From Patescibacteria group bacterium (GTDB lineage Bacteria > Patescibacteriota > Patescibacteriia > Patescibacteriales > JBAZCA01), in the NCBI GenBank assembly GCA_041671125.1, contig JBAZCA010000003.1, forward strand, positions 689 to 64,688: a DNA stretch of 64,000 nt, given 5' to 3'. Position 1 is the first letter of the stretch. Every line of letters starts with the position of its first letter. The notes under the pieces are model-generated. The model saw nothing but the letters and a program-made list of their open reading frames with translations, was not told where the DNA came from and did no database searches. A program made the translations under genes and the position numbers. Below are positions 20,650-57,896 of the stretch, one piece after another.

Positions 20650-21679
20650 AAAAAAATTTTCTTAAGACTCTAAAAACACTATATACCTTATACCACTTAT
20701 TTTCAAAGACCATATCAAACGTCCCCGGATAACTTATTTCTCTGCCGCCGAATCCCCGTTTAAAGCGTGTTACGCCCGGCCATTTTTTTTCGTCAATGCC
20801 GTAAAAATCATAATACCGGTAACCCTGGCACTTTGCCAGCTTAATCGTTTCCCACTGCAGAAGAAAAGGCGCCATTACGTTCCGGGATTCGCTTGAAGAG
20901 GCGCCGTGGATATAAGTAACCGTGTCCCCAAAAAATCCAACAATATTGGCCGCTATAACTCTACTGTTATATACGGCAAAATATAATTTAATCTTCAAGT
21001 TCTCCTTGCTGTTTTTTTCCCGGCTACAGTCTAATGACAGCATTTTGTCATAATATTTCTCCCCATGCAAACGAAAACCATCCCTCTTGCAGGTATCATC
21101 CAATAAGCACCAAAAACTATCAAATTCACCTGCCTCGGCCTCCCTGATAATTACCCCTTTTTTTTCCGCCAGCCGGATATTATATCTCGTTTTCGGATGC
21201 ATTTCTTTTAACAACTCTTCCTCGCTTACTGACAGGTTAAGGATTGCGGTTTTTGACGGCTGAACATCCAGCGTCCGCGCAAATTCCAAATTCTCCGCCA
21301 AAGGCGGATCCGCCTCGGGCAGGCAAATTCCAAATTCCAAATTATTTTCCGGTTCAAAACGCAGGAATATCGCATTTTGCTGTTTCGCCAAATCTTTAAT
21401 TGCGTCAAAAAATAATTTGTAATTTGGAATTTGTAATTTGTAATTAACGATCGGTCCTCTCGGACAATAAAAATAACTCTTGCCGAAAAAAAGCGGCTTT
21501 TTTATGAGTGTAGCCGCGGCAACCAGTTTTCCGCCGTCCTCCGCCCCCAGCCTGAATACTTTCTGTCCGGCCTTTTCCTGAAATTCTCCCCATTCCCAGG
21601 ATTGGTGAAAAACGCTGTTATCGGAATTACCAATAAATTCATTCAATATTTCTTTATGTTTAATAAAAACAATATTCAT
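20648..21679 (-). CDS. FemAB-family peptidoglycan interpeptide-bridge aminoacyltransferase (FemX-like)
   Basis: FHQSWEWGEFQEK, RYNIRLAEKKGV and YIHGASSSESRNVMAPFLLQWETIKLAKCQGYRYYDFYGI are typical of FemAB. Confidence 0.8.
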   Translation of the reverse strand: MNIVFIKHKEILNEFIGNSDNSVFHQSWEWGEFQEKAGQKVFRLGAEDGGKLVAAATLIKKPLFFGKSYFYCPRGPIVNYKLQIPNYKLFFDAIKDLAKQQNAIFLRFEPENNLEFGICLPEADPPLAENLEFARTLDVQPSKTAILNLSVSEEELLKEMHPKTRYNIRLAEKKGVIIREAEAGEFDSFWCLLDDTCKRDGFRLHGEKYYDKMLSLDCSREKNSKENLKIKLYFAVYNSRVIAANIVGFFGDTVTYIHGASSSESRNVMAPFLLQWETIKLAKCQGYRYYDFYGIDEKKWPGVTRFKRGFGGREISYPGTFDMVFENKWYKVYSVFRVLRKFF

Positions 21680-22292: not shown

Positions 22293-23612
22293 TCATAACC
22301 CATAGACCACAACACCTCTATTATCCGGGGCATGCTTTATAAGTCTTCTTAAGACGCTAAACTCAGGAATTAAAAAATTGCTTTCTATTAAAATCACCCG
22401 GTCGCTCCCGCCGTGCGCCTCAGCCAGATATTCGCCGGTCTCGGCGTCAGTCATATTATTCAGCTTCATTTTTATTATATCATAAACCGGGCTCACAATC
22501 TCAATTTCTTCGCCGACCCTTAACGTATTATGCACTTTAATACCTAACAAATATTTCTTATTTCTTACTTCTAACTTCTTGATTTTTACCACCTGCCCGC
22601 AAAATTCCCAATCGCAATTTTCTTTGGAAGTCGCGAGATTTTGCGCCAGCTTTCCCTCGTTAAAAAGAAACCCGGTCGTATAACCGCGGTTAAAAATTTT
22701 CTCTTCCAGATCGCTTTGCAACCGGCTGACCAGTTTAGCGTTACTCAAATTTTCCATGGCTTTTTTGTAAGCGCCAACCACGGTCGCGATATAATACACG
22801 CTCTTGGTCCGGCCTTCAATTTTAAAAGAAGTAACCCCGGCTTCAGCTAATTCCCGCAGATGTTTTATCAAGCACAAATCTTTTGAATTCAAAATATAAG
22901 AATAACCATCTTCCTCATAAAGTTCAAAGATGCCATTAACACCATCAGGGATGATCAACTTCTCACTTTTTACTTCTAACTTCTTACTTTTAACTTGATA
23001 CGGCCACCGGCAGGGCTGGACGCAGTCGCCGAGATTGGCGCTCCGGCCGGTTAAATATTTTGATAAAAAACAGCGACCCGAATAGGCCATGCACATGGCG
23101 CCATGGACAAAATATTCCAGTTCCAGTTTTGGCGCGGCTTTTTTTATGGCTTTAATATCTTTGAGGCTGGTTTCTCGCCCGAGAACAATCCGGCTGACAC
23201 CCTCTTTAAACCAGAACTTCGCGGCCGATGAATTTATACAATTCGCCTGGGTGGAAAGATGGATTATCGCTTTTGGCCAGATTTTTTTTACCGCGCTCAG
23301 TATGCCCGGATCGGAAATCACCAGGGCGTCCACTTTCATTTTTTTCATCTCCCGGATAATGCCGGGCAGTTTCTTAAAATGATCCTCGTGGGCGAAAATA
23401 TTAAACGTCGCGTAAACCCGCTTTTCCATCTTATGAGCGTAATCCACGGCTTTCTTAACAGACTTTAAATCAAAATCGTTAATCCGCGCCCGGAGCGAAT
23501 AATCCGGGATGCCGAGATAAACCGCGTCCGCCCCGAAAGCGAAAGCGGTCTTCATTTTTTCCAGGTTGCCGGCGGGAGCCAGGAGTTCAATTCTATTATT
23601 ATTCCTCATCAT
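22293..23612 (-). CDS. peptidase U32 family protein
   Basis: ELLAPAGNLEKMKTAFAFGADAVYLG and the ...EGR.KS..Y.. region. Contains two in-frame ACTTCTN heptamer arrays (22553-22587, 22958-22999). Confidence 0.85.
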   Translation of the reverse strand: MMRNNNRIELLAPAGNLEKMKTAFAFGADAVYLGIPDYSLRARINDFDLKSVKKAVDYAHKMEKRVYATFNIFAHEDHFKKLPGIIREMKKMKVDALVISDPGILSAVKKIWPKAIIHLSTQANCINSSAAKFWFKEGVSRIVLGRETSLKDIKAIKKAAPKLELEYFVHGAMCMAYSGRCFLSKYLTGRSANLGDCVQPCRWPYQVKSKKLEVKSEKLIIPDGVNGIFELYEEDGYSYILNSKDLCLIKHLRELAEAGVTSFKIEGRTKSVYYIATVVGAYKKAMENLSNAKLVSRLQSDLEEKIFNRGYTTGFLFNEGKLAQNLATSKENCDWEFCGQVVKIKKLEVRNKKYLLGIKVHNTLRVGEEIEIVSPVYDIIKMKLNNMTDAETGEYLAEAHGGSDRVILIESNFLIPEFSVLRRLIKHAPDNRGVVVYGL

Positions 23613-28143: not shown

Positions 28144-29379
28144 CTATTTTATCCTTATATTTAACATTACCTTTTTTCCCCTCGCCTTAGTCGCGTAATA
28201 ACCGGTTAACAGTCCGGCAATCTCCAAAATATCTTCTTCACTCTTTATTTTCTCCATTTCAAGCCTCATTAAATCAAATTTTTCCGGAATTTTCATTTCT
28301 AATAAATCATTCTTAATTTGTAATTTGTAATTTGTAATTCGCATAAGCGTCGTCGGCCCCATCGTCCTTTCCAATCTTACCACGATATCCCCTTTTTTCG
28401 CCAGTCTTTCCAGTTTTTCGCTCTCAGCCTTATCCCGGCCGACTACAACTAAAACCCAATGGAAATTTATGTCGGCTTCCACTTTTACGTCTTTCAAATT
28501 CGCGCCGGTGAGCGATTTTAATGAATTCTTTAAAAATAAAGTAACTTTTGGCGTTTTTTGGCGTTTTCTCGCGGCTTCCGGCATGGCTAATTTCAGCCAA
28601 AACACCCGCCCGTGTTTTAACAATTCTACGTCTTCGGTTTTGCAATCCGGGCAATGAGTAATAATATCTAAAACTTTTTTTGACCCTTCCGGGTCGGTTA
28701 AAAGACAGCCGCCGGCGGGCGTTGGATAATCTTTAATGCCAAATTTTCCAGCCAATTTCATCTGCTCTTCTCTAGATCGGCCTTCAATATTCAGAAGCTT
28801 TTCCCGCTTTACCAGGCCTTTCTTTTCCATAGCCGTTTCCGGCAGGAGCCTCGCTGACAATGGCCGCAAAACCTCCACCCCCGCCATCCTTACCACTCTT
28901 AATAATGCTTCTTTATTTTGAGAAAACGGCCGCTGGCCAAGCACCTCGCCGGTAGCGATAAAGTCAAAAATGTCACATCCCCTCCCCGCGACGTCAGGAG
29001 TCGGGGAGGGGTTGGGGGTGGGGTGTTGCGGGAAAGACGAAGAAAGAATTTTCCGAGGAGCGGCTCCAGGTTTTAAATACTTACCAGCTTCGCGGATCAT
29101 GAGACTGTGGCAGTCTATGCAGGGATTCATGTTTTTTCCGTAACCGCAGGACGGGCATTTCACGATTGATAAAATCTTTTCCGCAAGATCCTCTTCAATC
29201 AAATTAATCTTAAGTTCCTTCGCGCTCTCCCGCGCCCGCTCGCAATTAAAAAAATTACTGGAAAAACAGATTCCAATAACTTCTATCCCCTGATTCATTA
29301 GCACTTTGGCGGCGAGCATTGAATCCAGTCCGCCGGAAAAAAGGACAAGAGCTCTCGCTTCATTTTTGCTTTTTCCCAT
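28144..29379 (-). CDS. PP-loop ATP pyrophosphatase family protein, tRNA-thiolation-like (ThiI/MnmA-related)
   Basis: SGGLDS PP-loop, NPCIDCH and ATGEVLGQRPFSQ motifs. Carries an in-frame GC palindrome (28979-29027) and a TAATTTG heptamer array (28314-28341). Confidence 0.55.
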   Translation of the reverse strand: MGKSKNEARALVLFSGGLDSMLAAKVLMNQGIEVIGICFSSNFFNCERARESAKELKINLIEEDLAEKILSIVKCPSCGYGKNMNPCIDCHSLMIREAGKYLKPGAAPRKILSSSFPQHPTPNPSPTPDVAGRGCDIFDFIATGEVLGQRPFSQNKEALLRVVRMAGVEVLRPLSARLLPETAMEKKGLVKREKLLNIEGRSREEQMKLAGKFGIKDYPTPAGGCLLTDPEGSKKVLDIITHCPDCKTEDVELLKHGRVFWLKLAMPEAARKRQKTPKVTLFLKNSLKSLTGANLKDVKVEADINFHWVLVVVGRDKAESEKLERLAKKGDIVVRLERTMGPTTLMRITNYKLQIKNDLLEMKIPEKFDLMRLEMEKIKSEEDILEIAGLLTGYYATKARGKKVMLNIRIK

Positions 29380-31027: not shown

Positions 31028-34000
31028 CTATTTTTTTACTATCCCTAGCCAAAGCTCTTGTCCTTCCACTTTCACATTTTTTTCCGCGAGAATTGCTTCG
31101 CTCCCGCCTTCGGCCAAAGCGTCGGCCAAAGTGTCCTTTATTATTGAGTCCCTGTAATTACTTATGGCTTTTTTTATTTCTTCATCAGCAGTCGCGTAAT
31201 AAATTTCAATCCGGTCTTTAATTGTCAGTCCGGCATCTTTTCGCATGCCATTCACCAGGCGGACAATTTCGCGTTTTACGCCTTCCTGCTTTAATTCAGG
31301 GGTGATTTTCGTGTCCAGCTCCACTTCCATATTACCTTTTCCGGAGCTCACAATCACATTTTTAACATTCACCTCGTCTTTTATTAATTCAACAAACTCA
31401 TTATCAATTCGTAATTCATAATTCTTAATTTTTAATTCATTCAATGGTTGTCTGACTTTTATTCCCGCCTCATCCCTTTTCGCCAGCGCCAATTCCACGA
31501 TTTGTCTGACCGTTTCCATATCTTTTAAAATTCTGTTGTCTGTTATCTGCTGTCTGTTGTCTAATTTTGGCCACGCTTCCAAATGCACCGATTTATTCTC
31601 ATCCTTAAAATCATTCCCGGTTATTCTCTGCCAGATATTTTCCGCCGAGAACGGCATATAGGGCGCCATGACTTTTACGAGCTGTGAAAGAACATGGGCG
31701 GTAGTCTTTATAGCCGCTTCTTTGTCTTTCTCGTCATCAGATTTAAACCGATCCCTTGACCTTCTTAAATACCAGGTTGATAAATCGTCAATAAATTCGG
31801 TAATCGGCCGGGCGCCGGAAGGCAAATCGTATCTTTCCAAAGCCGCGGTTACCTCTTTGGTAAGCTGGTTAAGCCGCGTCAGTATCCATTCATCCAAAAT
31901 ATTTTTTTTCCTTTCTTTAGAAACTCCCTCTCCCTGATCCGCCAGTTGGCGGAGAATAGGGGGAGGGACGGGGAGGGGGCTTGCGCCATCACCCGCAAAC
32001 ATTTCGTAAAACTTATAAACATTCCAAAGCAGGATTACGTTTTTCCGGAGCGAAGTTTGCAAATCCGTTTCCGAAAGGCTCATGTCGTCGCCGAGCATGA
32101 TAGGAGAAGACATAAAATACATTCGTAGAGCGTCGGAGCCGTATTTTTCCAGGGTCGCTTTCGGATCCGGGTAATTGCCGTAGGACTTGCTCATCTTCCG
32201 GCCGTCAGTCCCGGCGAGTACTCCGGTAGTAATAACATTTTTAAAAGCCCGGTCGCCAAACAAAGCGTTGCCAAGGACATGGAGATAATAGAACCAGCCG
32301 CGGAGCTGCCCGGTATATTCAATGATAAAATCGGCCGGGAAAAGATTTTTCCACTCATTTTTTCTTTCAAAAGGGTAGTGAAACTGCCCGAACGGCATAG
32401 CGCCGGACTCAAACCAACAATCCAAAACCTCCGGCACCCGGCGCATCAACCCGCCGCATTTATCGCAAGGAAATTCTGTTTCATCAATTCCGGGCTTATG
32501 CAAATCAGTTATTTTTTTCCCGCTTAACTTTTCCAGCTCTTCAATTGACCCGACCACTTTTATTTCCTTGCACTTATTCTCTTCCGCATTTTTGGAATTT
32601 GGAATTTGGAATTTGGAATTTCCCGTGCATTTCCAGACCGGTATGGGCGAGCCCCAGTAGCGCGAACGGGAAAGGCACCAATCCGGAGCCGATTCAAGGT
32701 TGTAGCGAAACCGGCCTTCTTTAAAATGTTCCGGCACCCAATTTATTTTTTCGTTAGTCTTAATCATCTTTTCCCGAATATCGGAAATCTTTAAGTACCA
32801 GGCTTTCTGCGCCTTATAGATCAAAGGCGTGCCGCAACGGTAGCAAAAAGGATAGCTATGGGTGTAGTCAAAAGAGGAAAATAGCCTTTCGCCCAAATCT
32901 TCAAAGACTTTTTTTCCGGCTTTGGAAAAATACTGCCCGGCCCAATCACCGGCGTTTTTCGTGTAAATCCCGTTTTCGTCCATCAAATCCACCATCGGTA
33001 AACCGGATTTTTTTCCCAGCTCAAAATCGTCCTCGCCGAAATTCGGGGCGATATGGACGATTCCGGTCCCTTCTTCGGTATTAACAAACCCGCCCGCGTA
33101 AATTTTAAACGCGTTCCTGTTTTCTTTTATTATTTCATTGCCTAAATCAAACAAAGGCTCGTATTCCAGTCCGAGTAAATCCTTGCCTTTTAATTCGGAG
33201 AGTAGCTTATATTCTTTTTCTTTAAAAATTTCTTCTGTTTTTTCCTTGGCTAAAACATATATTTCTTTACCGATCGCAACAACCTGGTAAACCACATCTT
33301 CTCCCACCGCCAGCGCTAAATTTCCCGGCAAAGTCCAAGGCGTCGTCGTCCAGGCCAGCATATAAACATCGCTGTTGACTTTTTCTTTCGGTAAATTCTT
33401 AATTCTTAATTCGTAATTCTTAATTCTAAATTTCACCACCACCGACTTTTCCCGGACATCTTTGTACGACCCGGCGTCCATGGTAATTTCAAACTTGGAC
33501 AAAGGCGTGGCGCAGCGCGGGCAATGGAGTGACGAACGGTAGCCTTCATAAATAAGGCTATCGTCATACAACTTTTTAAAAGCCCAGATAACGCTTTCCA
33601 TAAAAGAAAGATCCATGGTTTTGTAAGCGTTTCGCATGTCCACCCATCTTCCGATCCGGTTAATATACCATTCCCATTGTTCCGAGCCGACATTAACATA
33701 ATTGCGGCAGGCGGCGATGAATTTATCCACTCCGAGTTTTTCAATATCTTTTTTATTTCGGAGGCCTAGTTCCTGCTCAACTTTATTTTCGGCCGGTAAA
33801 CCGTGGCAGTCCCAGCCCCAAACCCGCTCCACCCGGTAACCTTTCATGGTCCAGTATCGCGGAACGACGTCTTTGGCAATGCTCGGCAATAACGTGGCGT
33901 AATGTGGCAGGCCGGTGATAAACGGCGGGCCATCGTAAAAAACATAATCAGGCGGATTTTTTCCCTCCTCACTAAGGAGGGGACTAAGGGGAGGTTTTGC

Positions 34001-34105
34001 TACAGATTTTTCAAAAATTTTCGCCCGATTCCAAAATTCCAAAACTTCCTCTTCCATTTTTGGAAAGGGATTTGATGAGGCTTTTTTATCTTTTTCATTA
34101 GTCAT
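31028..34105 (-). CDS. ileS: isoleucine--tRNA ligase (type 2)
   Basis: PFITGLPHYATLLP (HIGH-like), WTTTPWTLPGN and KMSKSYGN; 1025 aa. Contains at least six in-frame repeat insertions (see findings). Confidence 0.97.
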   Translation of the reverse strand: MTNEKDKKASSNPFPKMEEEVLEFWNRAKIFEKSVAKPPLSPLLSEEGKNPPDYVFYDGPPFITGLPHYATLLPSIAKDVVPRYWTMKGYRVERVWGWDCHGLPAENKVEQELGLRNKKDIEKLGVDKFIAACRNYVNVGSEQWEWYINRIGRWVDMRNAYKTMDLSFMESVIWAFKKLYDDSLIYEGYRSSLHCPRCATPLSKFEITMDAGSYKDVREKSVVVKFRIKNYELRIKNLPKEKVNSDVYMLAWTTTPWTLPGNLALAVGEDVVYQVVAIGKEIYVLAKEKTEEIFKEKEYKLLSELKGKDLLGLEYEPLFDLGNEIIKENRNAFKIYAGGFVNTEEGTGIVHIAPNFGEDDFELGKKSGLPMVDLMDENGIYTKNAGDWAGQYFSKAGKKVFEDLGERLFSSFDYTHSYPFCYRCGTPLIYKAQKAWYLKISDIREKMIKTNEKINWVPEHFKEGRFRYNLESAPDWCLSRSRYWGSPIPVWKCTGNSKFQIPNSKNAEENKCKEIKVVGSIEELEKLSGKKITDLHKPGIDETEFPCDKCGGLMRRVPEVLDCWFESGAMPFGQFHYPFERKNEWKNLFPADFIIEYTGQLRGWFYYLHVLGNALFGDRAFKNVITTGVLAGTDGRKMSKSYGNYPDPKATLEKYGSDALRMYFMSSPIMLGDDMSLSETDLQTSLRKNVILLWNVYKFYEMFAGDGASPLPVPPPILRQLADQGEGVSKERKKNILDEWILTRLNQLTKEVTAALERYDLPSGARPITEFIDDLSTWYLRRSRDRFKSDDEKDKEAAIKTTAHVLSQLVKVMAPYMPFSAENIWQRITGNDFKDENKSVHLEAWPKLDNRQQITDNRILKDMETVRQIVELALAKRDEAGIKVRQPLNELKIKNYELRIDNEFVELIKDEVNVKNVIVSSGKGNMEVELDTKITPELKQEGVKREIVRLVNGMRKDAGLTIKDRIEIYYATADEEIKKAISNYRDSIIKDTLADALAEGGSEAILAEKNVKVEGQELWLGIVKK

Positions 34106-34166: not shown

Positions 34167-34430
34167 AATTATCAGCCATTTTCGCTAGACCTTATTAATG
34201 CGACGCGCTAGCCATCGGTATGCGACGCGCTAAATTTGACATAACGCAACTGTGCTTAAATCAAGGGTCGTTTAACGACCCTATTTTGATTGGTTTCCAA
34301 TCAGGAATAGTAGTTATTATTCCATAAAAATCGCCGGAAACAAACTCTTTAAAAACCGGAAAACTCACACAAGCCAGAAGATTTTCCCCTCCCTGGAGCG
34401 AAGCGATTGGGGAGGGGTTAGGGGGCTCCG

Positions 34431-34496: not shown

Positions 34497-34913
34497 TTAC
34501 GGCGACCCGCCAGGTCCTCCCGTTCCTCCCCACGGTAAAACTGTGAAGACAAAATAGGTGATGGCATAGGCGGCGATTATTATAATAAGGCCGATGACAG
34601 CGTGGCGGATCTGATCCAGGGATTCTTTGGTTTTCTGCTCGTCGCCGCGGGCGTTCATATATTTCCAGCCGGCTAAAATTATGAGAATAATAAAAATGAT
34701 CCCCAATAGAGCCATGAAACCCATAATCACCGCCGTAATAATGGAACCAATGGAAACTGTATCGCCGAAACCGGCGCCTGTTTTTAGGGGGTCGGTTTGG
34801 GACGTAATCGCCGACTTACCCGTATCGCTTAAAAGTCCGGCTCGACAAAAAGACGGCGTTAAAATTAACACCGAAGCCGCCATATAAATAATCTTAAGCA
34901 AATTTTTCCGCAT
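34497..34913 (-). CDS. VirB2/TrbC-like (T4SS-pilin-like) small membrane protein, paralogue A
   Basis: Signal peptide plus two-helix core LLGIIFIILIILAGWKYMNARGDEQKTKESLDQIRHAVIGLIIIIAAYAITYF. Confidence 0.65.
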   Translation of the reverse strand: MRKNLLKIIYMAASVLILTPSFCRAGLLSDTGKSAITSQTDPLKTGAGFGDTVSIGSIITAVIMGFMALLGIIFIILIILAGWKYMNARGDEQKTKESLDQIRHAVIGLIIIIAAYAITYFVFTVLPWGGTGGPGGSP

Positions 34914-34942
34914 ATCACATTAAACCTAAGCGCTTAACAAAC

Positions 34943-35081
34943 CCTCACCCCCGGCCCCTCTCCCGCTCCTAATCGTCGCGGTAAAGGGGAGCTGAAATAA
35001 TAAGGGTATTTTTTATTAAATTCATTCCTCTGGCTCCCCTCTCTATTAACATCAGTTAATGGAGAGGGGTTGGGGGTGAGG
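34943..35081. repeat. about 140-nt GC-armed structured element between pilin paralogues A and B
   Basis: Outer arms cctcacccccggcccctctcc / ggagaggggttgggggtgagg differ only by G.T-type mismatches. An inner 15-bp hairpin, cccctctctattaac/gttaatggagagggg, competes for the same right arm. Confidence 0.6.
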
Positions 35082-35092
35082 CAAACCCCATT

Positions 35093-35482
35093 TTAAGCCC
35101 CAACAAAATATTTAAACACAAAGCCCCAAATCGCATAGGCGCTAATGGTAATAATCAGCCCGACAATCGCCTGCCGGATGGTCGCGAGTGATTTTTTTAC
35201 TTTTTCTTCCTCGCCCCGAGCCATCATATATTCATAGCCGGCAAATACTATTAAAACAATAAAGATTACTCCGAGGACTGAAATAAAAACCCCAATCACC
35301 TGTCCGGCGATCGCGCCGATTGAAAGACCACCCGAATCGCTTTGCGACTGGTATCCGGCCGGTTCGGCGACTTTTTTTAGCTTATCCAACGGCCCATCGC
35401 CCTCGGCAAAAACGAAAGCGGGTAGTAAAAGAAATAAAAACAGAAAGCCGCTGATCGCTAATTTTTTAAAAAAAATAATCAT
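35093..35482 (-). CDS. VirB2/TrbC-like small membrane protein, paralogue B
   Basis: Core VLGVIFIVLIVFAGYEYMMARGEEEKVKKSLATIRQAIVGLIITISAYAIWGF. ATG at 35482 preferred over the TTG at 35500. Confidence 0.65.
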   Translation of the reverse strand: MIIFFKKLAISGFLFLFLLLPAFVFAEGDGPLDKLKKVAEPAGYQSQSDSGGLSIGAIAGQVIGVFISVLGVIFIVLIVFAGYEYMMARGEEEKVKKSLATIRQAIVGLIITISAYAIWGFVFKYFVGA

Positions 35483-35510
35483 AATAATGGCTTTAAGCAA
35501 TAATCTAAAA

Positions 35511-35942
35511 CTACTGCGGAGTTGAAGATGACTTTATCAGCCCGCTTCCGAGCTGATAAATCACAAAATAACTTATAACATAAGCGGCAAGGACAATAAC
35601 TAAACCGATTACCGCGTTTTTCATTATGTCTTTGGCTTTGGTAACTTTGGCTTCGTCGCCGCGAGCTGTCATCCATTCAAACCCGGCGTAAATCAAAAGG
35701 GCTAAAAAAATCACCCCTAAGAGCGAAAGGGCAATATTAATAATCATTCCGATAGTAGTATAAACAGTTTCTTCGCCGCTGCCCGTAACCGGCTTATAGC
35801 CGGCTTTACCGGCAAATTTGCCTAAAGTGCCTTCGCCGAAAGCGTCGCTAATTCCGACGGCCTGAATAACCGGGACTACGGAAGAAAAAATCAACGCTCC
35901 GAAAAAAATAATGGTAAAAACCGTAACTAGTTTTTTTCGCAT
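35511..35942 (-). CDS. VirB2/TrbC-like small membrane protein, paralogue C
   Basis: Core LLGVIFLALLIYAGFEWMTARGDEAKVTKAKDIMKNAVIGLVIVLAAYVISYF. Its stop (35511) lies about 28 nt upstream of paralogue B's preferred ATG (35482). Confidence 0.65.
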   Translation of the reverse strand: MRKKLVTVFTIIFFGALIFSSVVPVIQAVGISDAFGEGTLGKFAGKAGYKPVTGSGEETVYTTIGMIINIALSLLGVIFLALLIYAGFEWMTARGDEAKVTKAKDIMKNAVIGLVIVLAAYVISYFVIYQLGSGLIKSSSTPQ

Positions 35943-35948
35943 AAAAGA

Positions 35949-36374
35949 TTAAGTGCCGGTTGTCGGTTTCGTTAAAATTTCCCCGGCAAACTTCGTAATA
36001 ACGTAAGCCGAAAGGACAATAACGAGGCCGATTACCGCCTGCTGAATAAGTTCCTTGGCCTTGTCGGCTTCCTGCTGGTTACCGCGGGCGAGCATCCACG
36101 TAAATCCGGCATAAATCATGATCCCTAAAAAAATTATTCCGATAAATGAAAGAGCTATTCCTAAAATTGACCCGGCCCGGTCGTAAAAATCAATGGCTTG
36201 AGGTTCAGTTCCATAACCCGCTTTAAAAGTTTCCAGCAGTCCGGCCGTGGTTTTGCCGGTAAGGCCGGTGGGCGCGGGAGTTTGAGCCAAAACCGCCGAG
36301 ATGCTAAAAAAAATAAAAAATAAAAACAGACTGGACAGAATAAAAGCTTTAAATATTTTTGAAGCATTTGACAT
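35949..36374 (-). CDS. VirB2/TrbC-like small membrane protein, paralogue D
   Basis: Core FIGIIFLGIMIYAGFTWMLARGNQQEADKAKELIQQAVIGLVIVLSAYVITKF. ATG at 36374 preferred. 6 nt from paralogue C. Confidence 0.65.
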   Translation of the reverse strand: MSNASKIFKAFILSSLFLFFIFFSISAVLAQTPAPTGLTGKTTAGLLETFKAGYGTEPQAIDFYDRAGSILGIALSFIGIIFLGIMIYAGFTWMLARGNQQEADKAKELIQQAVIGLVIVLSAYVITKFAGEILTKPTTGT

Positions 36375-36554
36375 AATTTTCACAAAGAGAAACAAAAAAA
36401 AGGAATTGTCTGAACTTATTTTCGTTACGCGTTACACTATTTTTCAGTATAATTGCCTTAAACATGAATTTTTCGCGTCCTGTCCAAAGCAATGGGCCCG
36501 TCCGCTGTCTTCTCGTATTTGAGTCTCTGAAGACAGGCCCGAAGAATTTCCATA

Positions 36555-36950
36555 TTATACTGCCGGGGTTCCGCCGGTGGCCTCAAAAATCGTATTAATA
36601 AGAAATTGGGTGATTCCAAAGGCGGCGAGTACTATAACCAAACCGATAGCGCCGGCTTGGATCAATTTTCTCGCTTCCGTGATTTTGTCGTCGTTTCCCT
36701 GCGCGGTCATCCATTTAAAACCGCCAATCAGGATGATGATAACGGCTATCAGGCCGAGAAAGCCTAAAATAACCCTGATAACGTTTACGATAATGCTTTT
36801 TGGATCTTCATTTCCTAATCCGATATCGTTGGCGTCGTTAAGTCCGAGATCGTTGGTTGTCAGCGCCTGGGCGTTAACCGTTACGGCGACGGACAAAAGC
36901 GGGATGATAACCATCATCGCCATCATCAGCTGAATAAGTTTTTTCTTCAT
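36555..36950 (-). CDS. VirB2/TrbC-like small membrane protein, paralogue E
   Basis: Core FLGLIAVIIILIGGFKWMTAQGNDDKITEARKLIQAGAIGLVIVLAAFGITQF. Confidence 0.65.
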   Translation of the reverse strand: MKKKLIQLMMAMMVIIPLLSVAVTVNAQALTTNDLGLNDANDIGLGNEDPKSIIVNVIRVILGFLGLIAVIIILIGGFKWMTAQGNDDKITEARKLIQAGAIGLVIVLAAFGITQFLINTIFEATGGTPAV

Positions 36951-37016
36951 AATTCACCCCCTTTCCTTTCCAAAGAGAAAAATTTATATTCTCTTTATGT
37001 TAAAAGTAAAAACAAA

Positions 37017-37406
37017 TTAATCGTTGACAACATTATTCTGGATAGTGGTAATGAGAAAATTAGCAATAGCAAAAGCGGCCAGAACAATTAATAGCCCGAT
37101 GGCGCCGTTAACTATATACTTCCTGCCCTGGGTTACCTTGTCGTCGTTGCCTCCGGCAGTCATCCAGAGGAATCCGCCGATTAGGATAACAACAACGGCG
37201 ATAATGCCTAGAAAGCTTAAAGCCACCTGGATAATGTTAACAATAACATTCTTCGGGTTGGCATTTTGAAGCCCGATGTTGTTGGCAAAATTGAGGCCAA
37301 AATTACCGAGATTATCTTGTGCTAAAACTGCCGTTGATGGCAGAAGGACAGCCGCTAAAAGAAACGCCGCCGCCGCTAACTTAATCTTCTTTGTCCATTT
37401 ACACAT
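37017..37406 (-). CDS. VirB2/TrbC-like small membrane protein, paralogue F
   Basis: Core FLGIIAVVVILIGGFLWMTAGGNDDKVTQGRKYIVNGAIGLLIVLAAFAIANF. Closest to E and to the cores of P1/P2/P4. Confidence 0.65.
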   Translation of the reverse strand: MCKWTKKIKLAAAAFLLAAVLLPSTAVLAQDNLGNFGLNFANNIGLQNANPKNVIVNIIQVALSFLGIIAVVVILIGGFLWMTAGGNDDKVTQGRKYIVNGAIGLLIVLAAFAIANFLITTIQNNVVND

Positions 37407-40250: not shown

Positions 40251-41381
40251 ATGGCGCGAAAAAAAACAACTAAACCAATAATTTTTTCCGGCATCCAGCC
40301 TTCGGGAAATCTCCATCTCGGTAACTATCTCGGGGCGATCGTCCAGTGGGTGGAACTGCAGGATCAGTACGACTGCGTATTTTGCGTCGTTGATTATCAC
40401 GCCATTACCGTTAAGCAGGATCCGAAAATTTTAAAGGAGAAAATCGTAGAAATCGCTAAAATCTATTTAGCCTCGGGCATTGACCCGAAAAAATCCATAA
40501 TCTTTCAGCAATCAGCCCGGCCGGAGCATACTGAATTAGCGTGGATTTTAAATACGATAACCAGAATGTCTGATTTATTCAGGATGACTCAGTTTAAAGA
40601 TAAATCTGGCGCGGTTATCTTGAAGAAAAAATTAAAAATAAAACATAAAGAGAAAATAAATGGTGAGGTTAAATCTGTGAGAGAAGATGTTTTTGAAATC
40701 GGTCGGGAAAAACTAAGTCCTGAGGAATATAGTCAATATTTACTAAACAGAACCGGGGTAGGGCTTTTCGACTATCCCGTCCTCATGGCCGCCGACATAT
40801 TATTGTATGACACTGATTTAGTGCCGGTCGGCGAAGACCAGTCTCAGCATGTTGAACTTTGCCGGACACTGGCAAGAAGATTTAATCAGCAATTTAACGA
40901 GACTTTTAAAATACCGGAAGTTAAAATAAAAGAAGAATCGGCCCGGATCATGGGGCTGGATGACCCGGCAAAAAAAATGAGTAAGAGCGCGTCCAGTGAG
41001 AATAATTACATTGCCCTAACCGATTCTCCGGAGAAAGCCGGAAAAAAAATAACTCGCGCCGTTACTGACTCGGGTTCGGAAGTTAAATATGATAAAATCG
41101 CGAAGCCGGCCATTTCCAATTTAATGACTATCTATTCGCTTCTCGCGAACACATCTTTTGAAAATATTGAGAAAAAATATAAAGGCAAGGGTTACGGCGA
41201 ATTTAAAAAAGACCTCGCTGAAATTGTCGTGGATTTTTTAACCGCTTTCCAGAAAAAATACAACGCCATCCCGGACGAAGAAGTAAAAAAAATCCTGGCG
41301 CAAGGCGCGGAAAAATTAGCGCCGATCGCCAAAAAAAATATGGAGAAAGTAAAAAATAATATCGGCGTGCTGTTAGAATAA
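40251..41381 (+). CDS. trpS: tryptophan--tRNA ligase
   Basis: IFSGIQPSGNLHLGNYLGA (HIGH region), YPVLMAADIL and KMSKS. Contains a Lys-rich insertion of about 45 aa after QFKDKSG. Confidence 0.95.
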   Translation: MARKKTTKPIIFSGIQPSGNLHLGNYLGAIVQWVELQDQYDCVFCVVDYHAITVKQDPKILKEKIVEIAKIYLASGIDPKKSIIFQQSARPEHTELAWILNTITRMSDLFRMTQFKDKSGAVILKKKLKIKHKEKINGEVKSVREDVFEIGREKLSPEEYSQYLLNRTGVGLFDYPVLMAADILLYDTDLVPVGEDQSQHVELCRTLARRFNQQFNETFKIPEVKIKEESARIMGLDDPAKKMSKSASSENNYIALTDSPEKAGKKITRAVTDSGSEVKYDKIAKPAISNLMTIYSLLANTSFENIEKKYKGKGYGEFKKDLAEIVVDFLTAFQKKYNAIPDEEVKKILAQGAEKLAPIAKKNMEKVKNNIGVLLE

Positions 41382-41470: not shown

Positions 41471-44137
41471 TTAATTTCCACTTTTAAGCTTTTCCAGCTC
41501 AATTTTCCAATTTTCCAGTTTTTCTTTTTCCTTTTTAATTATTTCCTCCGGCGCTTTTTCCATAAATTCTTTATTTTCTAAACGCCCGGTAAGCCCGCTG
41601 ATCATTTTTTCCAAACGCTCCACTTCTTTTTTTATCCGCTCTTTTTCCTTTACTTCATCAATCGCACCGACAAGGTAAATTTCAACGCCGCCGACTGCCG
41701 CGTGGATCGCTTTTTCAATTTTCTCTCCGGTTTCCAGAATTTCCAGTTCGTTGATACCGGTCCGAAGTCCTTTTATTAATCCGGCCTGCGATTCAATCAA
41801 TTTAATATCCTTTCCGGCATAAATTATGGCTTTGACTTTTTTCGCCGGTTCAACTTTATTTTCCGCCCGCGCGTTCCTTATGGACTTAATCACTTCAATT
41901 ACTATATCAAATCCGCTCTCCTCATATTCCGCCGCTTTTTCCTCCGGCCACTCGGTTATCAAAAGCGGCTTATCAGCGCCTAGTCCGCTCCAGACGGCCT
42001 CAGTAATAAAAGGGATAAAAGGATGCCAGAGTTTTAGTAATCCCTCAAGGACATATTTAAGAACTTTGTTCTTTTCGGATGTTTTTTCAAATTTGCTTAA
42101 TTCAAGATACCAGTCAGCAAATTCGCTCCGGGTGAAATCTCTTAGCTTTTCGCCGGCCTGGGAAAACCTAAAGTTGCTAAAATCATTATTAACCTGTTTT
42201 ATCAAAGCCTGAAATTTCGCCAAAATCCATTTATCCGCCAAAGTCAGATTAGCATTATTAAATTCCGAATTCCCAACGCCATTCTCCTGGTTAGAAAAAA
42301 CGAATAAGGAAATATTCCAGAGTTTAGTGATAAAATTCCTCGCGCCGATAATTTTTTCCTCGTAAAATTTTGAATCATTTCCCGGCGATACTCCTAAAAG
42401 GAGGCTCAGGCGGAGCGAATCAGTGCCATAGTCCCTTATTACGTCCAGCGGGTCAATATTATTGCCGGATGATTTTGAAAACTTCCGGCCCTTTTCGTCG
42501 CGCAACATGCCGTGGATATATACGTCGCGGAAAGGAATTTCATCTAGCGTGTAAGTCGTCATTAAAATCATCCGCGCCATCCAAAAAAATAAAATTTCAT
42601 AACCCATCTGCATCCAGGCAGTCGGATGGAATGTCTTTAAATCATCATTATCGGCGGGTTTACCCGCCGTAGCTTCAGCGGAGGCGGGCCACCCAAGGGT
42701 TGAAAAAGTCCATAACGCCGAAGAATACCAGGTGTCCAAAGTATCTTCGTCTTGGATCCACCCCTCGCCTTCCGGAGGTTCAATCCCAACATAAATATCT
42801 TCCAAATTTTTGGAATTTGGAATTTGAGATTTGGAATTTGCATACCATACGGGTATGCGGTGTCCCCACCAAATTTGCCGCGAAATGCACCAGTCGCGCA
42901 AATTATCAATCCAGTTTAAATAAGTCTTATGGAACCTCTCCGGAATGATGGTTATTTTTTGAGCCGGATCGTTATTTAAGCCGGCCTCAACCGCTTCCCG
43001 CATCAGGTCTTTTAAACTTTTTCCTTTTCCCGGGATGATTTTATTGACGCTTACGAACCACTGCTCTTTTATCTGAGGTTCAACCAAACCATCACTCCGA
43101 TCCCCTTTGGCGACCCGATGAATATAATCTTCTTCCACCTTAACCAAAAGATTTTTTTCTTTTAATCTTTCTATTATCTTCGGTCTGGCTTTTAGAATAT
43201 CCATTCCTGCAAACTCACCCGCGATCGGCATCAATTCGCCGTTAAAATCAATAATTTGTTCTCCCTCTAAATTGTGTCTTTCCGCGATTTCAAAATCAAC
43301 CATGTCATGCCATGGCGTAATAGTCATGACTCCGGTTCCAAATTCCGGTTCAATGATACTATCCTTAATTATCGTTGCCGTAACCTTTCCATTAATCCAT
43401 TCACATTCAAACTTATCACCGTGTTTGTATTGCGCGTACCGTTCATCATCCGGATGCATAACTACATATTTGTCGCCAAATTTGGTTTCCGGGCGGGCGG
43501 TCGCGATTACGAATGGGCCGTATTGAAGATAATAAAAGGGCGCTTTTTCCTCGTGCCAAACTATCTCGTCGTCGGAAATTGTAGTTTGGAGTTTTGCATC
43601 CCAATTAACAATCCTTTTTCCGCGATAGATAAGCCCGTCGTCGTACATTTTTTTAAAAACCGTATTAACCGCCAGGTTGCGCTCGTCGTCAAAAGTATAA
43701 GCCAGGCGCGACCAGTCGCAGGAAGTCCCCATCTTCCGAATCTGCGAAAGGATGGTGGCTTTTGATTCTTCGGCATATTTTTTTATCTCTTTTAAAAGCC
43801 CCTCACGCCCGAGTTCCTGCCTCGGATTTTTTACGCCCTTTTCCATTAAGAGTTTTTCCACTTTAGCCTGCGTGGCCACGGCCGCGTGATCGGTTCCGGG
43901 GACGAGAAGAACTTTTTTTCCGCACATCCGCTGATAACGAGCCATGACGTCCATGAGGGAGTTTTCTAAAGCATGCCCAAGATGCAAAACTCCGGTAACG
44001 TTCGGCGGCGGCATCATGATTGAATAGGGATCGCCTTTCAGATTATCAGGATTAAAAAAACCCGACTGTTCCCATTTTTCATAAATTCCGTCTTCGTGCT
44101 CGGCTGGGTTATAGGTTTTGGGCAATTCTTTTTTCAT
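41471..44137 (-). CDS. valS: valine--tRNA ligase
   Basis: PPPNVTGVLHLGHA, KFSKSSGN and a C-terminal coiled coil; 888 aa. In-frame TGGAATT array at 42811-42838. Confidence 0.97.
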   Translation of the reverse strand: MKKELPKTYNPAEHEDGIYEKWEQSGFFNPDNLKGDPYSIMMPPPNVTGVLHLGHALENSLMDVMARYQRMCGKKVLLVPGTDHAAVATQAKVEKLLMEKGVKNPRQELGREGLLKEIKKYAEESKATILSQIRKMGTSCDWSRLAYTFDDERNLAVNTVFKKMYDDGLIYRGKRIVNWDAKLQTTISDDEIVWHEEKAPFYYLQYGPFVIATARPETKFGDKYVVMHPDDERYAQYKHGDKFECEWINGKVTATIIKDSIIEPEFGTGVMTITPWHDMVDFEIAERHNLEGEQIIDFNGELMPIAGEFAGMDILKARPKIIERLKEKNLLVKVEEDYIHRVAKGDRSDGLVEPQIKEQWFVSVNKIIPGKGKSLKDLMREAVEAGLNNDPAQKITIIPERFHKTYLNWIDNLRDWCISRQIWWGHRIPVWYANSKSQIPNSKNLEDIYVGIEPPEGEGWIQDEDTLDTWYSSALWTFSTLGWPASAEATAGKPADNDDLKTFHPTAWMQMGYEILFFWMARMILMTTYTLDEIPFRDVYIHGMLRDEKGRKFSKSSGNNIDPLDVIRDYGTDSLRLSLLLGVSPGNDSKFYEEKIIGARNFITKLWNISLFVFSNQENGVGNSEFNNANLTLADKWILAKFQALIKQVNNDFSNFRFSQAGEKLRDFTRSEFADWYLELSKFEKTSEKNKVLKYVLEGLLKLWHPFIPFITEAVWSGLGADKPLLITEWPEEKAAEYEESGFDIVIEVIKSIRNARAENKVEPAKKVKAIIYAGKDIKLIESQAGLIKGLRTGINELEILETGEKIEKAIHAAVGGVEIYLVGAIDEVKEKERIKKEVERLEKMISGLTGRLENKEFMEKAPEEIIKKEKEKLENWKIELEKLKSGN

Positions 44138-45690: not shown

Positions 45691-47820
45691 TTACGCTTTA
45701 TTTTTTCTATACTTAGCCGCGCAAAACCTTATCTCGCCATATGTAATCTCATCCCCGATCAGCTCTTTTATTGGCTTCATTTTTTCATCGCCGACGAGTT
45801 TTATGGCCGCCATAATTTTCTTTTCCGCCTTTTCGGGAAGCCATTCGCTTAAATCTTTAATTAGATCCCTTTCGTATAAATAGACAATATGCTTTTCCAC
45901 CGTCTCAACGGTTAATTCTCTTTCCTCGGCTATTGCTTCAAGGCTCATCCCTTCCTTAAATAAATCATATGTTGCCAATTGAGTCAATTTTGTCTCCAGC
46001 TTTATTGACGGTTCTCTTTTCTCTTTATGGCTGTATCCGGCTCGGTCGGATTTCGGCTCCCTTTTCGGCGGCGCGTTTTTTCTCGCGTAACCGGAACCGA
46101 CGAGGCAGTTATCGCATTTATCGCACTCCCGCGGCTCTTCTTCGCCAAAATAATCAAGGATATATTTCTGCCGGCAACCGAAATGGTAAACATAATTTTC
46201 CATGGCCTCCAATTTTTCGTAGGCTCGGCTTAGTTTCTCTTTGATGGCGCGGAAATCCAGCTTTACTTCTTCCTTATTCACCCTTTTTAAAATGCGGATC
46301 TCGGTTCCTTTGAAAGGCGGGCGGTATTCAAGAAAACCTTGCTCGGCCGATTTGCGCAATGCCCGGTTCAGGCTGTCTTTTTTTATCCCTAACACCCCGG
46401 CTGCTTCTTCGGCGTTAAAATCCAGGCCCTCGTTAATTTTCCGGCCATAATAGTCAAAAAGCTTTTCCATAGTTTCAATTCGTTTCGTTGACCGGCCGGA
46501 AACGAGATTGGCCATCTTCCGTGTATCTTCAAGGAATTTTAAATAAGCATTACCGCTTTTTTCCCGCGCCCGGCTTAGATAGCCTTCCCGTTCAAGAATT
46601 TTCAACGCCGTGCCGATAGCCATATCCGGAACGTCGTGGCCAGCGAGCATCTCCTTTAAAGATGAATAGGTTACAAGTATTGGATCAGTATCCATGGAAC
46701 ATAGTATTTCATACAAATCCAGAGTCATCTCTGGCGGCGGGTTGTCGCCTTTGATAAAAAATTCCCTTAAATAGCGGTCGCGGGGCGAATAGAGAAGGAG
46801 GCATAAAGCCGGTTTGCCGTCGCGTCCGGCCCGGCCGGCTTCCTGGTAATAGGCTTCAATCGTGCCGGGCATGTCGTGATGGATTACAAAGCGGATATCT
46901 TTTTTATCAATTCCCAGGCCGAAGGCGTTGGTGGCAACAATGACGCGAGCCTTGCCAGACATAAAATCCTCCTGCACCCATTTGCGTTCTTCGGCTTCCA
47001 TGCCGGCGTGATAGCCGACCGCCTCTATTCCCTGGTTTAAAAGCTCGGTTAAAATTTCATCAGCTTTGGCTCTGGTGCCGGCATAAACGATGCCGCCGCC
47101 TTCGTTCATGGAATTAATGGTATTGAAAATAATCTGGATTTTTGTAGCCGAGTTTGCCTGGATGGCGCCGAACTGGAGACCGGGGCGGCTAAAGCCGGTA
47201 ACGACCGATGCCGGATTTTCCATTTTCAGCTGTTTTTTTATGTCTTCGCGGACTTCGGGCGTGGCCGTGGCCGTTAAAGCGATAACCGGCGGCCTGCCCG
47301 CCGAAGAAGAAGGACGCCCGACCGCGGAAATGGCTGACCAAAGTTTCATATAACTCGGGCGGAAATCATGTCCCCATTCCGAGATACAATGGGCTTCGTC
47401 AATGGCAAAAAGGCTTACTTTTAAATCTTTCAGAGCGACCATAAAATCGGCGTTGTAAAATCTTTCCGGCGCGATATAGAGAAGTTTAACGGCGCCGGTC
47501 TTCGCCTCGCCGAGCCGCCGGGCGCTTTCTTCGGGCGTTAAAGAACTGTTAATGAATGTCGCCGGAATGTTTCTTCTTTGCAGGGAGTCCACCTGGTCTT
47601 TCATTAGGGCGATTAAAGGGGAAATAACAATGGTCAGGCCGTCCATGATAAGCGCCGGGAGCTGGTAGCATAAAGATTTTCCCCCGCCGGTCGGCATGAT
47701 TATTAAAGCATCTTTGCCTTCCAGCGCGGCGGAAATCGCCCGCTCCTGTCCGGGCCGAAAATGATCATAGTTAAAATATACCTTTAAAGCCTCGCTGATT
47801 TTATTATTAATTTCAGACAT
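45691..47820 (-). CDS. recQ: ATP-dependent DNA helicase RecQ
   Basis: FRPGQERAI, MPTGGGKSLCYQLPAL, DEAHCISEWGHDFRPSY and a Zn-binding CxxC..C..C region. Start moved to the ATG at 47820. Confidence 0.9.
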   Translation of the reverse strand: MSEINNKISEALKVYFNYDHFRPGQERAISAALEGKDALIIMPTGGGKSLCYQLPALIMDGLTIVISPLIALMKDQVDSLQRRNIPATFINSSLTPEESARRLGEAKTGAVKLLYIAPERFYNADFMVALKDLKVSLFAIDEAHCISEWGHDFRPSYMKLWSAISAVGRPSSSAGRPPVIALTATATPEVREDIKKQLKMENPASVVTGFSRPGLQFGAIQANSATKIQIIFNTINSMNEGGGIVYAGTRAKADEILTELLNQGIEAVGYHAGMEAEERKWVQEDFMSGKARVIVATNAFGLGIDKKDIRFVIHHDMPGTIEAYYQEAGRAGRDGKPALCLLLYSPRDRYLREFFIKGDNPPPEMTLDLYEILCSMDTDPILVTYSSLKEMLAGHDVPDMAIGTALKILEREGYLSRAREKSGNAYLKFLEDTRKMANLVSGRSTKRIETMEKLFDYYGRKINEGLDFNAEEAAGVLGIKKDSLNRALRKSAEQGFLEYRPPFKGTEIRILKRVNKEEVKLDFRAIKEKLSRAYEKLEAMENYVYHFGCRQKYILDYFGEEEPRECDKCDNCLVGSGYARKNAPPKREPKSDRAGYSHKEKREPSIKLETKLTQLATYDLFKEGMSLEAIAEERELTVETVEKHIVYLYERDLIKDLSEWLPEKAEKKIMAAIKLVGDEKMKPIKELIGDEITYGEIRFCAAKYRKNKA

Positions 47821-47884
47821 GAGAATTCTAATTTCCAAATTTATTTTAAGCTATCCTAACATTACCAGCAATAAATTTTTCCGT

Positions 47885-52411: not shown

Positions 52412-52507
52412 CATTATTCATAATTCGTAATTCATAATTCAATTTTTTCATTTTACATTGTCATTTTTATTTTCCCGCCCGACTGAACGCCAGTCGTTCG
52501 GGCGGGT
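52412..52507. repeat. heptamer array plus CCCGCCCG...TTCGGGCGGG hairpin, intergenic copy
   Basis: cattatt cataatt cgtaatt cataatt caatttt ... then cccgcccgactgaacgccagtcgttcgggcggg followed by tgattttt. Related to the in-frame rpoB copy at 16811-16858. Confidence 0.7.
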
Positions 52508-57805: not shown

Positions 57806-57822
57806 TGTTAATTTTCTCCCTG

Positions 57823-57896
57823 TGCGCCCAGATGGACTTGAACCATCGACCCCGGCTTTATAAGAGCCGTGCTCTAACCAGCTGAGCTATGGGCGC
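57823..57896 (-). tRNA. tRNA-Ile (anticodon UAU)
   Basis: 74-nt cloverleaf: GCGCCCA/TGGGCGC acceptor, CGGCT-CTTATAA-AGCCG anticodon arm (TAT at positions 34-36), GATGG-TTCAAGT-CCATC T arm. Confidence 0.85.

Follow-up and report, generated by a model that had tools for sequence, protein, structure and literature searches.

Translated heptanucleotide arrays and GC-rich hairpin elements in the isoleucyl-tRNA synthetase gene and other essential genes of a Patescibacteria group bacterium

We analyzed a stretch of 64,000 nucleotides (nt) from a Patescibacteria group bacterium (contig JBAZCA010000003.1 of assembly GCA_041671125.1, positions 689 to 64,688 of the forward strand), hereafter the window, in which ileS, the gene for isoleucyl-tRNA synthetase (IleRS), carries six segments of repeat DNA within its reading frame. 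These segments fall into two classes, four heptanucleotide tandem arrays and two GC-rich hairpin elements, and members of both classes are found in other genes of the window and in related genomes of the candidate phyla radiation (CPR). We consider it likely that two kinds of short repeat DNA, slippage-prone and copy-prone and filtered by selection, populate this genome and its relatives. Coordinates are those of the window unless another locus is named.

Results

The open reading frame (ORF) at 31028-34105 on the minus strand encodes 1025 amino acids (aa) and is ileS, as the initial annotation of this DNA had proposed: its product is 100% identical to the IleRS of an NCBI Patescibacteria metagenome-assembled genome (MAG) and matches solved IleRS2 structures with an E value of about 1e-197 (Priestia megaterium 8c8v; Thermus 1ile). 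All six repeat segments listed in that annotation were found, at or within 1 nt of the coordinates given there, their peptide readings agree with the translation of the 1025-aa ORF, and all six are kept in frame in an intact, full-length gene. On the minus strand, site 1 (33963-33994) is a GC-rich hairpin read as PPLSPLLSEEG (aa 38-48), immediately ahead of the first Rossmann strand. Site 2 (33394-33432), which Tandem Repeats Finder (TRF) reports as AAGAATT x5.6 on the coding strand, is read as (F)RIKNYELRIKNL (aa 225-238) and lies in the hairpin ahead of the WTTTPW editing motif. Site 3 (32591-32621) is an (AAATTCC)x4.4 array with a TRF match of 100%, read as GNSKFQIPNSK (aa 495-505), and site 4 (31924-31980), a nested GC-rich palindrome of about 51-55 nt, is read as ASPLPVPPPILRQLADQGEGV (aa 708-728). 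Site 5 (31532-31562; TRF, AGACAAC x4.4), read as LDNRQQITDNR (aa 848-858), forms the start of the helix at residues 850-880, and site 6 (31406-31440; TRF, A[N]GAATT x5), read as NELKIKNYELRI (aa 889-900), encodes the strand at residues 888-894 of the C-terminal domain. An independent assembly from ENA (L205) matches the window at 100% identity over 23,078 nt, a stretch that takes in ileS and valS; the segments thus did not arise by an accident of assembly.

We aligned this IleRS with 59 orthologues of 60-84% identity and counted a residue as query-specific where its column was occupied in fewer than 30% of them. Every one of the 47 query-specific residues falls within the six segments, and by this measure of column occupancy the whole length gain specific to the lineage of this IleRS is repeat DNA. 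Clean lineage-specific insertions are found at site 1 (9-10 aa; query aa 38-48), site 3 (16 aa; aa 494-509) and site 4 (14-17 aa; aa 715-728). The first of these is a 21-nt insertion without counterpart in the 59 orthologues or in the related metagenomic loci L001 and L124, the last a 51-nt insertion relative to L001, and site 3 splits a C-x2-C zinc knuckle that is invariant in the orthologues, turning it into C493-x18-C512. Six segments of the AlphaFold model have a predicted local distance difference test (pLDDT) score below 50; three correspond to these insertions (residues 41-49, 498-510 and 707-732 for sites 1, 3 and 4, respectively), and the others cover the first 10 residues, residues 200-204 and the loop at 633-643.

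The claim that all six segments are insertions therefore holds only in part. At site 2, the hairpin is hypervariable in every orthologue, and the query is longer by 3 aa than the family median and by 13 aa than the P. megaterium IleRS2. The gain at sites 5 and 6 is only 2 aa each relative to the orthologues, with no change in length at site 6 relative to 8c8v, and the helix start and the beta-strand that these sites encode exist in every orthologue as well as in the solved structure. To judge from this alignment, the repeat at sites 5 and 6 has mostly replaced older sequence and has not been added to it.

The initial annotation had presented the arrays as a peculiarity of one gene, a view that does not survive comparison with the rest of the window or with other genomes. 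In a lag scan of the window, 16 tandem arrays were found at lag 7 and from 0 to 3 at each of the other lags between 4 and 13; dinucleotide shuffles gave about 0.1 arrays at lag 7, and period 7 is the only over-represented tandem period. TRF reported period-7 rows at the four ileS sites and at about 15 other places in the window, where tandem dimers of AATTCNT matched 16 times (1.5 expected) and those of TGGAATT 8 times (0.2 expected). Thirteen of the 16 period-7 arrays are within ORFs, which is what a genome that is about 89% coding predicts if coding sequence is not avoided. Besides ileS, the hosts include valS, uvrC, a gene of the FemAB family, a U32 peptidase gene and a ThiI-like gene.

The same sites of IleRS carry arrays across the CPR. 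We assembled a set of 84 CPR ileS genes (248 kb), comprising 80 metagenome loci, three further loci and the gene of the window, and detected 65 period-7 arrays with 28 different units, compared with at most 7 arrays at any other lag. All 65 map to six hotspots, at query positions of about 230 (12 arrays), 274 (5), 500 (7), 720 (6), 853 (15) and 895 (20), the last of which, site 6, has more than 10 different units among its 20 arrays. Five hotspots are sites 2-6 of the window and the sixth, at about 274, is empty there; none of the 65 arrays mapped to site 1, a GC-hairpin site. In the family alignment, the hotspots fall where length varies most, and they recur in dozens of unrelated NCBI, JGI and ENA assemblies. 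Heptamer-derived peptides at the same positions in orthologues include QITNYELRIL, GIRNQELGVL, FSIFNFQFSI and KVKSQKSKV, and in some genomes (L155, L163) a single unit occupies three ileS hotspots. After the IPVW motif, other CPR valyl-tRNA synthetases (ValRS) of many lineages have differing heptamer-derived peptides, among them LDNRQQTTDDR, NFQFSISN, SKVKSQKSKV and PNSKFQ.

The arrays bear marks of selection in the host reading frame. Were every unit to follow the consensus, 6 of the window's 13 coding arrays would hold an in-frame stop codon, and it is at exactly those codons that the real arrays deviate; at site 2, a single ACG unit among AAG units changes TAA to TAC. Where the unit cannot give rise to a stop codon (AAATTCC, AATTACA), the array is perfect or close to it. 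Across the ileS set, a stop-avoiding deviation was seen in 14 of 46 arrays; of the 32 that are stop-free, 14 are perfect. Moreover, 42 of 47 distinct ileS arrays have more A than T on the coding strand (p = 2.5e-8), giving peptides rich in K, N, E, Q, R, T and I. The one T-rich array of the window, TCTGTTA x4.6 at 5574-5605 on the plus strand, encodes a hydrophobic stretch, FCYLLSVFCFL, near the N-terminus of an ORF of unassigned product. Rfam scans returned no family match in or near ileS. Stop avoidance, orientation bias and this lack of an Rfam match together indicate ordinary translation of the segments and not excision or bypass.

Close relatives differ in both the presence and the identity of the repeats. 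Three relatives were found in a search with the neighbouring 508-aa ORF. The ileS gene of L001, 80% identical to that of the window at the nucleotide level, is without the GC elements of sites 1 and 4, and its units at site 2 (AAACTCA), site 3 (CAGACGA, as also in L143) and site 6 (GAAGTTA) all differ from those of the window. The syntenic locus L124 has neither the valS array, in an orthologue that is 85% identical (P0122), nor the uvrC palindrome described below, and carries another, degenerate heptamer array at the uvrC site. Despite the conserved synteny, the ileS gene of L124 appears to belong to a different IleRS lineage, which suggests gene replacement. That gene has a different GC-rich N-terminal insertion (NPASAGLRGISPFPK versus NPFPK; L124 22342-22661).

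A change of one repeat unit separates L001, an ENA assembly, from L143, a JGI contig. The two align over 9039 nt with 0 mismatches and one gap, which is exactly one 7-nt ACGACAG unit of the site-5 ileS array, present as 3 units in L001 and 4 in L143. The 4-unit allele encodes an intact IleRS of 1013 aa (L143 3001-6039), and the 3-unit allele (L001 5725-8759) is frameshifted into ORFs of 843 aa and 164 aa (DUF5915); the window has four diverged units at this site. One-unit slippage is thus documented at strain level in one contig pair. Arrays of this kind may give rise to false pseudogenes in MAG annotation.

Two pairs of arrays within the window resemble each other beyond the repeat unit itself. 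The uvrC array (51717-51751, minus strand; AAGAATT x5, read as KRIKNYELRIKNL) has 39 nt in common with ileS site 2, with 3 differences and including the non-periodic end AATTTACCG, and both are read as RIKNYELRIKNLP. The array of valS (ORF at 41471-44137, minus strand) lies at 42809-42840 on the same strand, directly after RIPVWY; it is a 33-nt insertion of CAAATTC x4.6 (TTTGGAA type), read as ANSKSQIPNSK, a reading also given as ANSKSQIPNSKN. This agrees with the initial annotation, which had placed a valS array at the structurally equivalent position after IPVW. Over 33 nt it differs from ileS site 3 at 2 positions, in the same frame and with the same aberrant last unit AAAAAT. A likeness around GGAAGA after the ileS and valS arrays is probably ancestral or due to chance, since L124 valS also has GACGAA there. 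The initial annotation had also drawn attention to a 19-mer, AATTCGTAATTCATAATTC, at three sites. Exact copies are indeed present at 31406-31424 in ileS (1 nt from the position first given), 51724-51742 and 52422-52440, with 0 expected; the last is within an AATTCNT array in intergenic DNA (52412-52441) that adjoins a GC hairpin at 52474-52506. Taken alone, this three-site identity is weak evidence for copying, because the 19-mer varies at only two positions, each of them limited by stop avoidance.

The window has GC-rich hairpins of the CCCCTCC...GGAGGGG type both in ORFs and in intergenic DNA. The nested hairpin of ileS site 4 is predicted to fold at -28.3 kcal/mol (z = -3.5), a value reached by 0 of 200 shuffles, and is stronger than that of site 1 (-13.4 kcal/mol, z = -2.0). 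Its homologue in uvrC (51268-51322, minus strand; -26.4 kcal/mol) encodes about 16 aa and is missing from the L124 uvrC orthologue. Reading frames of the two copies coincide for the first few codons only, there being an internal 1-nt indel, and the peptides differ (PPPILRQLADQGEG versus LPLSPPAGESEGRG). Each copy is missing in a close relative, and the length of each is a multiple of 3.

Hairpin elements and heptamer arrays are also found together outside the window. In L001, 21-nt GC palindromes (CCTGCCTRCCGRCAGGCAGG) stand inside the AAACTCA and GAAGTTA arrays of ileS sites 2 and 6, in opposite orientations. The palindrome CCTGCCTGCCGGCAGGCAGG is present in L001 at 6396-6416 and 8338-8358, within these ileS arrays, and in intergenic DNA of L002 (2603-2622), and the core of the 21-nt palindrome was also seen in L128 and L008. 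The L008 copy (2055-2074), beside short tandem repeats, is from Ferruginibacter (Bacteroidota), which hints at a cross-phylum distribution. Among the loci examined, the only other match to the core of the ileS/uvrC palindrome, GATTCGCCAGCTGGCGGAGA, was in L169, a distant CPR genome with 48% IleRS identity, where it is intergenic (5965-6040), just downstream of ileS and directly after AAAATTT/CAAATTT heptamers.

Four further repeat-bearing ORFs of the window are on the minus strand. In the FemAB-family ORF, AAATTCC-type arrays stand on either side of GC hairpins (21281-21343), and a TAATTTG array at 21413-21445 is read as NYKLQIPNYKL. The U32 peptidase ORF has two AGAAGTN arrays, at 22552-22579 and 22958-22996, read as KKLEVRNKKY and QVKSKKLEVKSEKL, respectively. 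A perfect (AATTACA)x3.7 array in the ThiI-like ORF (28314-28339) is read as RITNYKLQIK, and a GC hairpin is found within the same ORF at 28979-29011. In rpoB, a GC hairpin with AAATTNC heptamers (AAATTAC/AAATTCA/AAATTCC) at 16811-16851 is read as KLQIQNSTRPNASGGRE (aa ~485-504); this shorter heptamer-plus-hairpin segment is within a stretch of about 80 aa without counterpart in solved RpoB structures.

Two further genes of the window differ in length from L124 orthologues. The tryptophanyl-tRNA synthetase (40251-41381, plus strand) has 10 and 32 extra residues within aa 121-169 compared with an 84%-identical orthologue, encoded by A-rich low-complexity DNA with weak periodicity of 7, 13 and 15 nt. 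A RecQ-like gene (45691-47838, minus strand) has a 21-nt insertion, GGGCGTCCTTCTTCTTCGGCG (GRPSSSA, aa 174-180), that is absent from its 89%-identical orthologue.

Some features of IleRS and its surroundings were noted apart from the repeats. The HIGH signature of this IleRS reads H-Y-A-T (aa 68-71; 33892-33903, minus strand), nearly invariant in the 59 closest orthologues; the same position is HVGH in solved IleRS2 and HYGH in the L124 gene, and the KMSKS motif of the window IleRS is intact. A tRNA-Ile with anticodon TAT (UAU), at 57822-57896 on the minus strand and adjoining tRNA-Val(GAC), bears on anticodon recognition by this enzyme; bacteria normally decode AUA by a lysidine-modified CAU tRNA, and a UAU tRNA-Ile is rare. 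Upstream of ileS, at 34497-37406 on the minus strand, are six tandem small genes of the type IV secretion system (T4SS)-pilin type (PF18895), an arrangement kept in L001, L124 and L205, with GC hairpins among them at 34386-34417, 34955-34991 and 35034-35069.

Discussion

Our preferred explanation, to which we assign a good though not overwhelming probability, involves two kinds of repeat. The first would be arrays of about 3-5.6 heptamer units, mostly containing AATT and A-rich on the coding strand; the second, GC-rich hairpin elements of 21-55 nt that are often beside arrays. Array length would change by slipped-strand mispairing, one 7-nt unit per step, and arrays and hairpins would be copied between loci as pre-formed modules or overwrite each other at one site. 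We infer such copying and overwriting from the common non-periodic ends and from the different units found at the same site in close relatives. Given that these genomes are about 89% coding, most copies would fall in ORFs. In essential genes, purifying selection would then keep net lengths a multiple of 3 and the inserts stop-free in the host frame, and the surviving copies would also encode hydrophilic peptides and occupy a few length-tolerant surface elements. The outcome would be translated lineage-specific loop peptides, or rewritten tolerant strands and helix ends. The repeats would thereby act as near-neutral or selfish DNA, and a host function need not be assumed. As slippage of a single unit breaks the frame, pre-formed in-frame modules seem the most economical route to arrays of about 4.5 units in essential genes.

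Several points weigh against this explanation. Slippage in steps of 7 nt cannot by itself account for the way in which essential genes came to hold arrays of about 4.5 units in frame. The evidence for slippage comes from a single contig pair, possibly from related samples, and the difference between L001 and L143 may be an error of assembly or consensus; the site-5 array (24-31 nt) is far shorter than the assembler k-mer. Module copying is deduced from three pairs of similar arrays, and no enzyme for dispersal was identified. The A-rich bias could stem from a strand-asymmetric mechanism and not from selection on the peptides. The neutrality of the repeats is assumed, and the occurrence of the same peptide at the same position in IleRS and ValRS, and in IleRS and UvrC, could reflect function.

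A wider proposal is that heptamers and GC hairpins form one cross-phylum repeat system, spreading by templated copying or mobility like the small dispersed repeats (SDR) and short tandemly repeated repetitive sequences (STRR) of cyanobacteria. In gene-dense CPR genomes, such a system would have moved into essential ORFs and become the dominant source of indels and loop rewriting in core proteins, with 7-nt slippage making ileS and other genes stochastically prone to frameshift. We put this forward tentatively, as a possibility that we doubt more than we believe.

Another interpretation treats the arrays as contingency switches, in which reversible slippage frameshifts essential genes such as ileS and yields non-growing or split-enzyme subpopulations that are selected for. 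Several facts are in keeping with a switch: the unit length of 7 nt is no multiple of 3, exactly one unit, whose loss splits ileS, separates L001 from L143, and the downstream 164-aa ORF (DUF5915) of L001 is still callable. However, with only 3-5 units and frequent degeneracy the arrays do not resemble high-rate tracts, and the stop-removing point deviations lower repeat purity and hence the slippage rate. The hosts are housekeeping genes, not surface or restriction genes, and a single frameshifted allele was seen among the 84 ileS genes. We therefore regard selection for switching as unlikely.

It seems just as improbable that the peptides themselves, NSKFQIPNSKN in IleRS and ValRS and RIKNYELRIKNLP in IleRS and UvrC, are adaptive tags for interaction or localization, with a 7-residue periodicity, that arose convergently. 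Identical or nearly identical peptides, read in the same frame, do occupy equivalent positions in the two paralogous synthetases and are also found in IleRS and UvrC, and a DNA period of 7 nt yields a heptad period of 7 aa. Against such a role, close relatives are without these peptides or have unrelated units and peptides at the same sites, the same family of arrays is also found in intergenic DNA (52412-52441) and, in the FemAB-family ORF, in the opposite orientation with a different peptide, and the clean insertions are predicted to be disordered. A host function, whether as phase switching or as peptide modules, may exist, but nothing seen here supports it.

The initial annotation had also allowed for ancestral conserved residues. 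A related explanation is that there are no insertions, the codons of ancestral residues being 7-periodic by coincidence or low-complexity sequence having converged in place. This fits sites 5 and 6, whose positions are found in all orthologues and in solved IleRS2 with almost no change in length, and peptides resembling IKNYEL are common at site 6 across the family. However, neither the segments of sites 1, 3 and 4 nor the array of valS nor the palindrome of uvrC is found in close relatives, the units at sites 2, 3 and 6 are wholly different between ileS genes that are 80% identical, and many arrays are perfect, which is incompatible with an ancient origin. For sites 1-4 this explanation is largely refuted, and as an account of the repeats as a whole we give it a very low probability.

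We see still less reason to suppose that the repeats are excised or bypassed before or during translation, as a mini-intron, an intein-like element or by ribosomal bypass. No direct indication was found in its favor, although the GC elements are predicted to fold into stable mRNA hairpins. Besides the absence of an Rfam match in or near ileS, the segments (21-55 nt; 7-21 aa) are far too small for inteins or introns, and their lengths are a multiple of 3 with host-frame stops avoided, a constraint that would be needless if they were excised. The initial annotation had left room for splicing or bypass, and we saw no sign of either.

An artefact of assembly or sequencing, which that annotation had likewise kept in view, can practically be dismissed: short tandem repeats do mis-assemble, as may have happened with the single unit that separates L001 from L143, but the arrays (20-39 nt) are shorter than reads and than the k = 141 of the ENA assemblies, and the segments recur in independent assemblies, identically over 23 kb in one and as hotspots in dozens from NCBI, JGI and ENA.

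The repeats have an architectural parallel in the SDR of Nostoc punctiforme, reportedly described by Elhai et al. in 2008 as hairpin elements of 21-27 nt inside tandem heptamer arrays, varying in presence and absence between relatives and occurring in both orientations. The 21-nt palindromes in the heptamer arrays of L001 ileS sites 2 and 6, again in both orientations, and the GC hairpins inside the AAATTCC arrays of the window at 21281-21343 have this architecture. In contrast to the Nostoc elements, with which we compare them by description, they belong to CPR and not to Cyanobacteria, and they stand in frame in essential ORFs. The study by Elhai et al. (Genome Res 18:1484) is cited in PMC3116915.

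Heptanucleotide arrays as such are well documented. They are the most abundant class of long simple sequence repeats (SSR) in many bacteria, for which polymerase slippage has been proposed (Mrazek 2007, as summarized in PMC4679880). Besides the STRR of cyanobacteria, reported cases include GGGNATC in Xanthomonas and Nostoc (PMC4692102), TAACTGA in Beggiatoaceae (PMC4679880) and, within and between genes of Geobacter metallireducens, elements of four GGACCGG units (PMC2700814). The arrays described here share with these a period of 7, a head-to-tail order of at least 3 units with a mode of about 4, dispersal, an over-representation of period 7 (16 versus 0-3 in the window; 65 versus at most 7 in the 84 ileS genes) and, in one case (L001/L143), polymorphism in unit number. 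Published cases, however, lie for the most part between genes and are depleted in coding sequence (PMC4692102, PMC4679880), whereas 13 of 16 arrays in the window are intragenic, in essential genes and translated, and recur at the same protein sites. Tandem dimers of the units CCCCAGT, TTGGTCA, CAACAGT, TAACTGA, GGGAATC, GGGGATT and GGACCGG were absent from the window. A scan for the AATTCNT pattern gave matches in Cyanobacteria, Bacteroidota, Ignavibacteria, Chloroflexi, Saccharibacteria and Gottesmanbacteria, and in 120 contigs of that scan from other phyla only 9 arrays were in a long ORF and 111 were not.

Rickettsia palindromic elements (RPE) offer a precedent for translated repeats, as they are found in frame in unrelated housekeeping genes of a small, reduced genome, at positions compatible with the protein fold (PMC10969869). 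The palindromic elements of ileS site 4 and uvrC likewise stand in frame in unrelated housekeeping ORFs. They differ from RPE, which are about 100-150 bp long and have a conserved peptide, in their length of 21-55 nt, their differing peptides and, for the ileS and uvrC copies, their partly different frames due to the 1-nt indel; furthermore, most of the repeats described here are tandem heptamers, and the host is a member of the Patescibacteria. In SSR contingency loci, for example in Haemophilus, phase variation results from frameshift by a change in repeat number (PMC12721329). The intragenic arrays resemble these loci in having a unit that is not a multiple of 3 and in the frameshift of L001 ileS by a change of one unit, but their hosts are IleRS, ValRS, UvrC and RpoB, the tracts have 3-5.6 units and are often impure, and we saw no sign of adaptive switching. 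Literature searches found no paper describing heptamer or other SSR repeats in CPR/Patescibacteria. The feature is best seen as an intragenic, translated variant of known heptamer-repeat and small-palindrome systems, with clade-wide hotspots in essential proteins.

Conclusions

Proteins of CPR/Patescibacteria are known for odd insertions, the source of which is rarely identified. The repeats described here offer a concrete mutational mechanism for the gain and rewriting of loops in essential proteins of reduced genomes, and extend heptamer repeats from a mostly intergenic setting, in cyanobacteria and a few proteobacteria, to translated, intragenic arrays in CPR. Their hotspots provide a natural map of insertion-tolerant positions in class Ia synthetases, the zinc knuckle included. 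For annotation, they are a warning that 7-nt slippage can make essential genes look split or pseudogenized in MAGs. At the probability that we attach to our preferred explanation, repeat DNA would be a clade-wide way for proteins to gain and change loops, affecting ValRS, UvrC and RpoB as well as IleRS.

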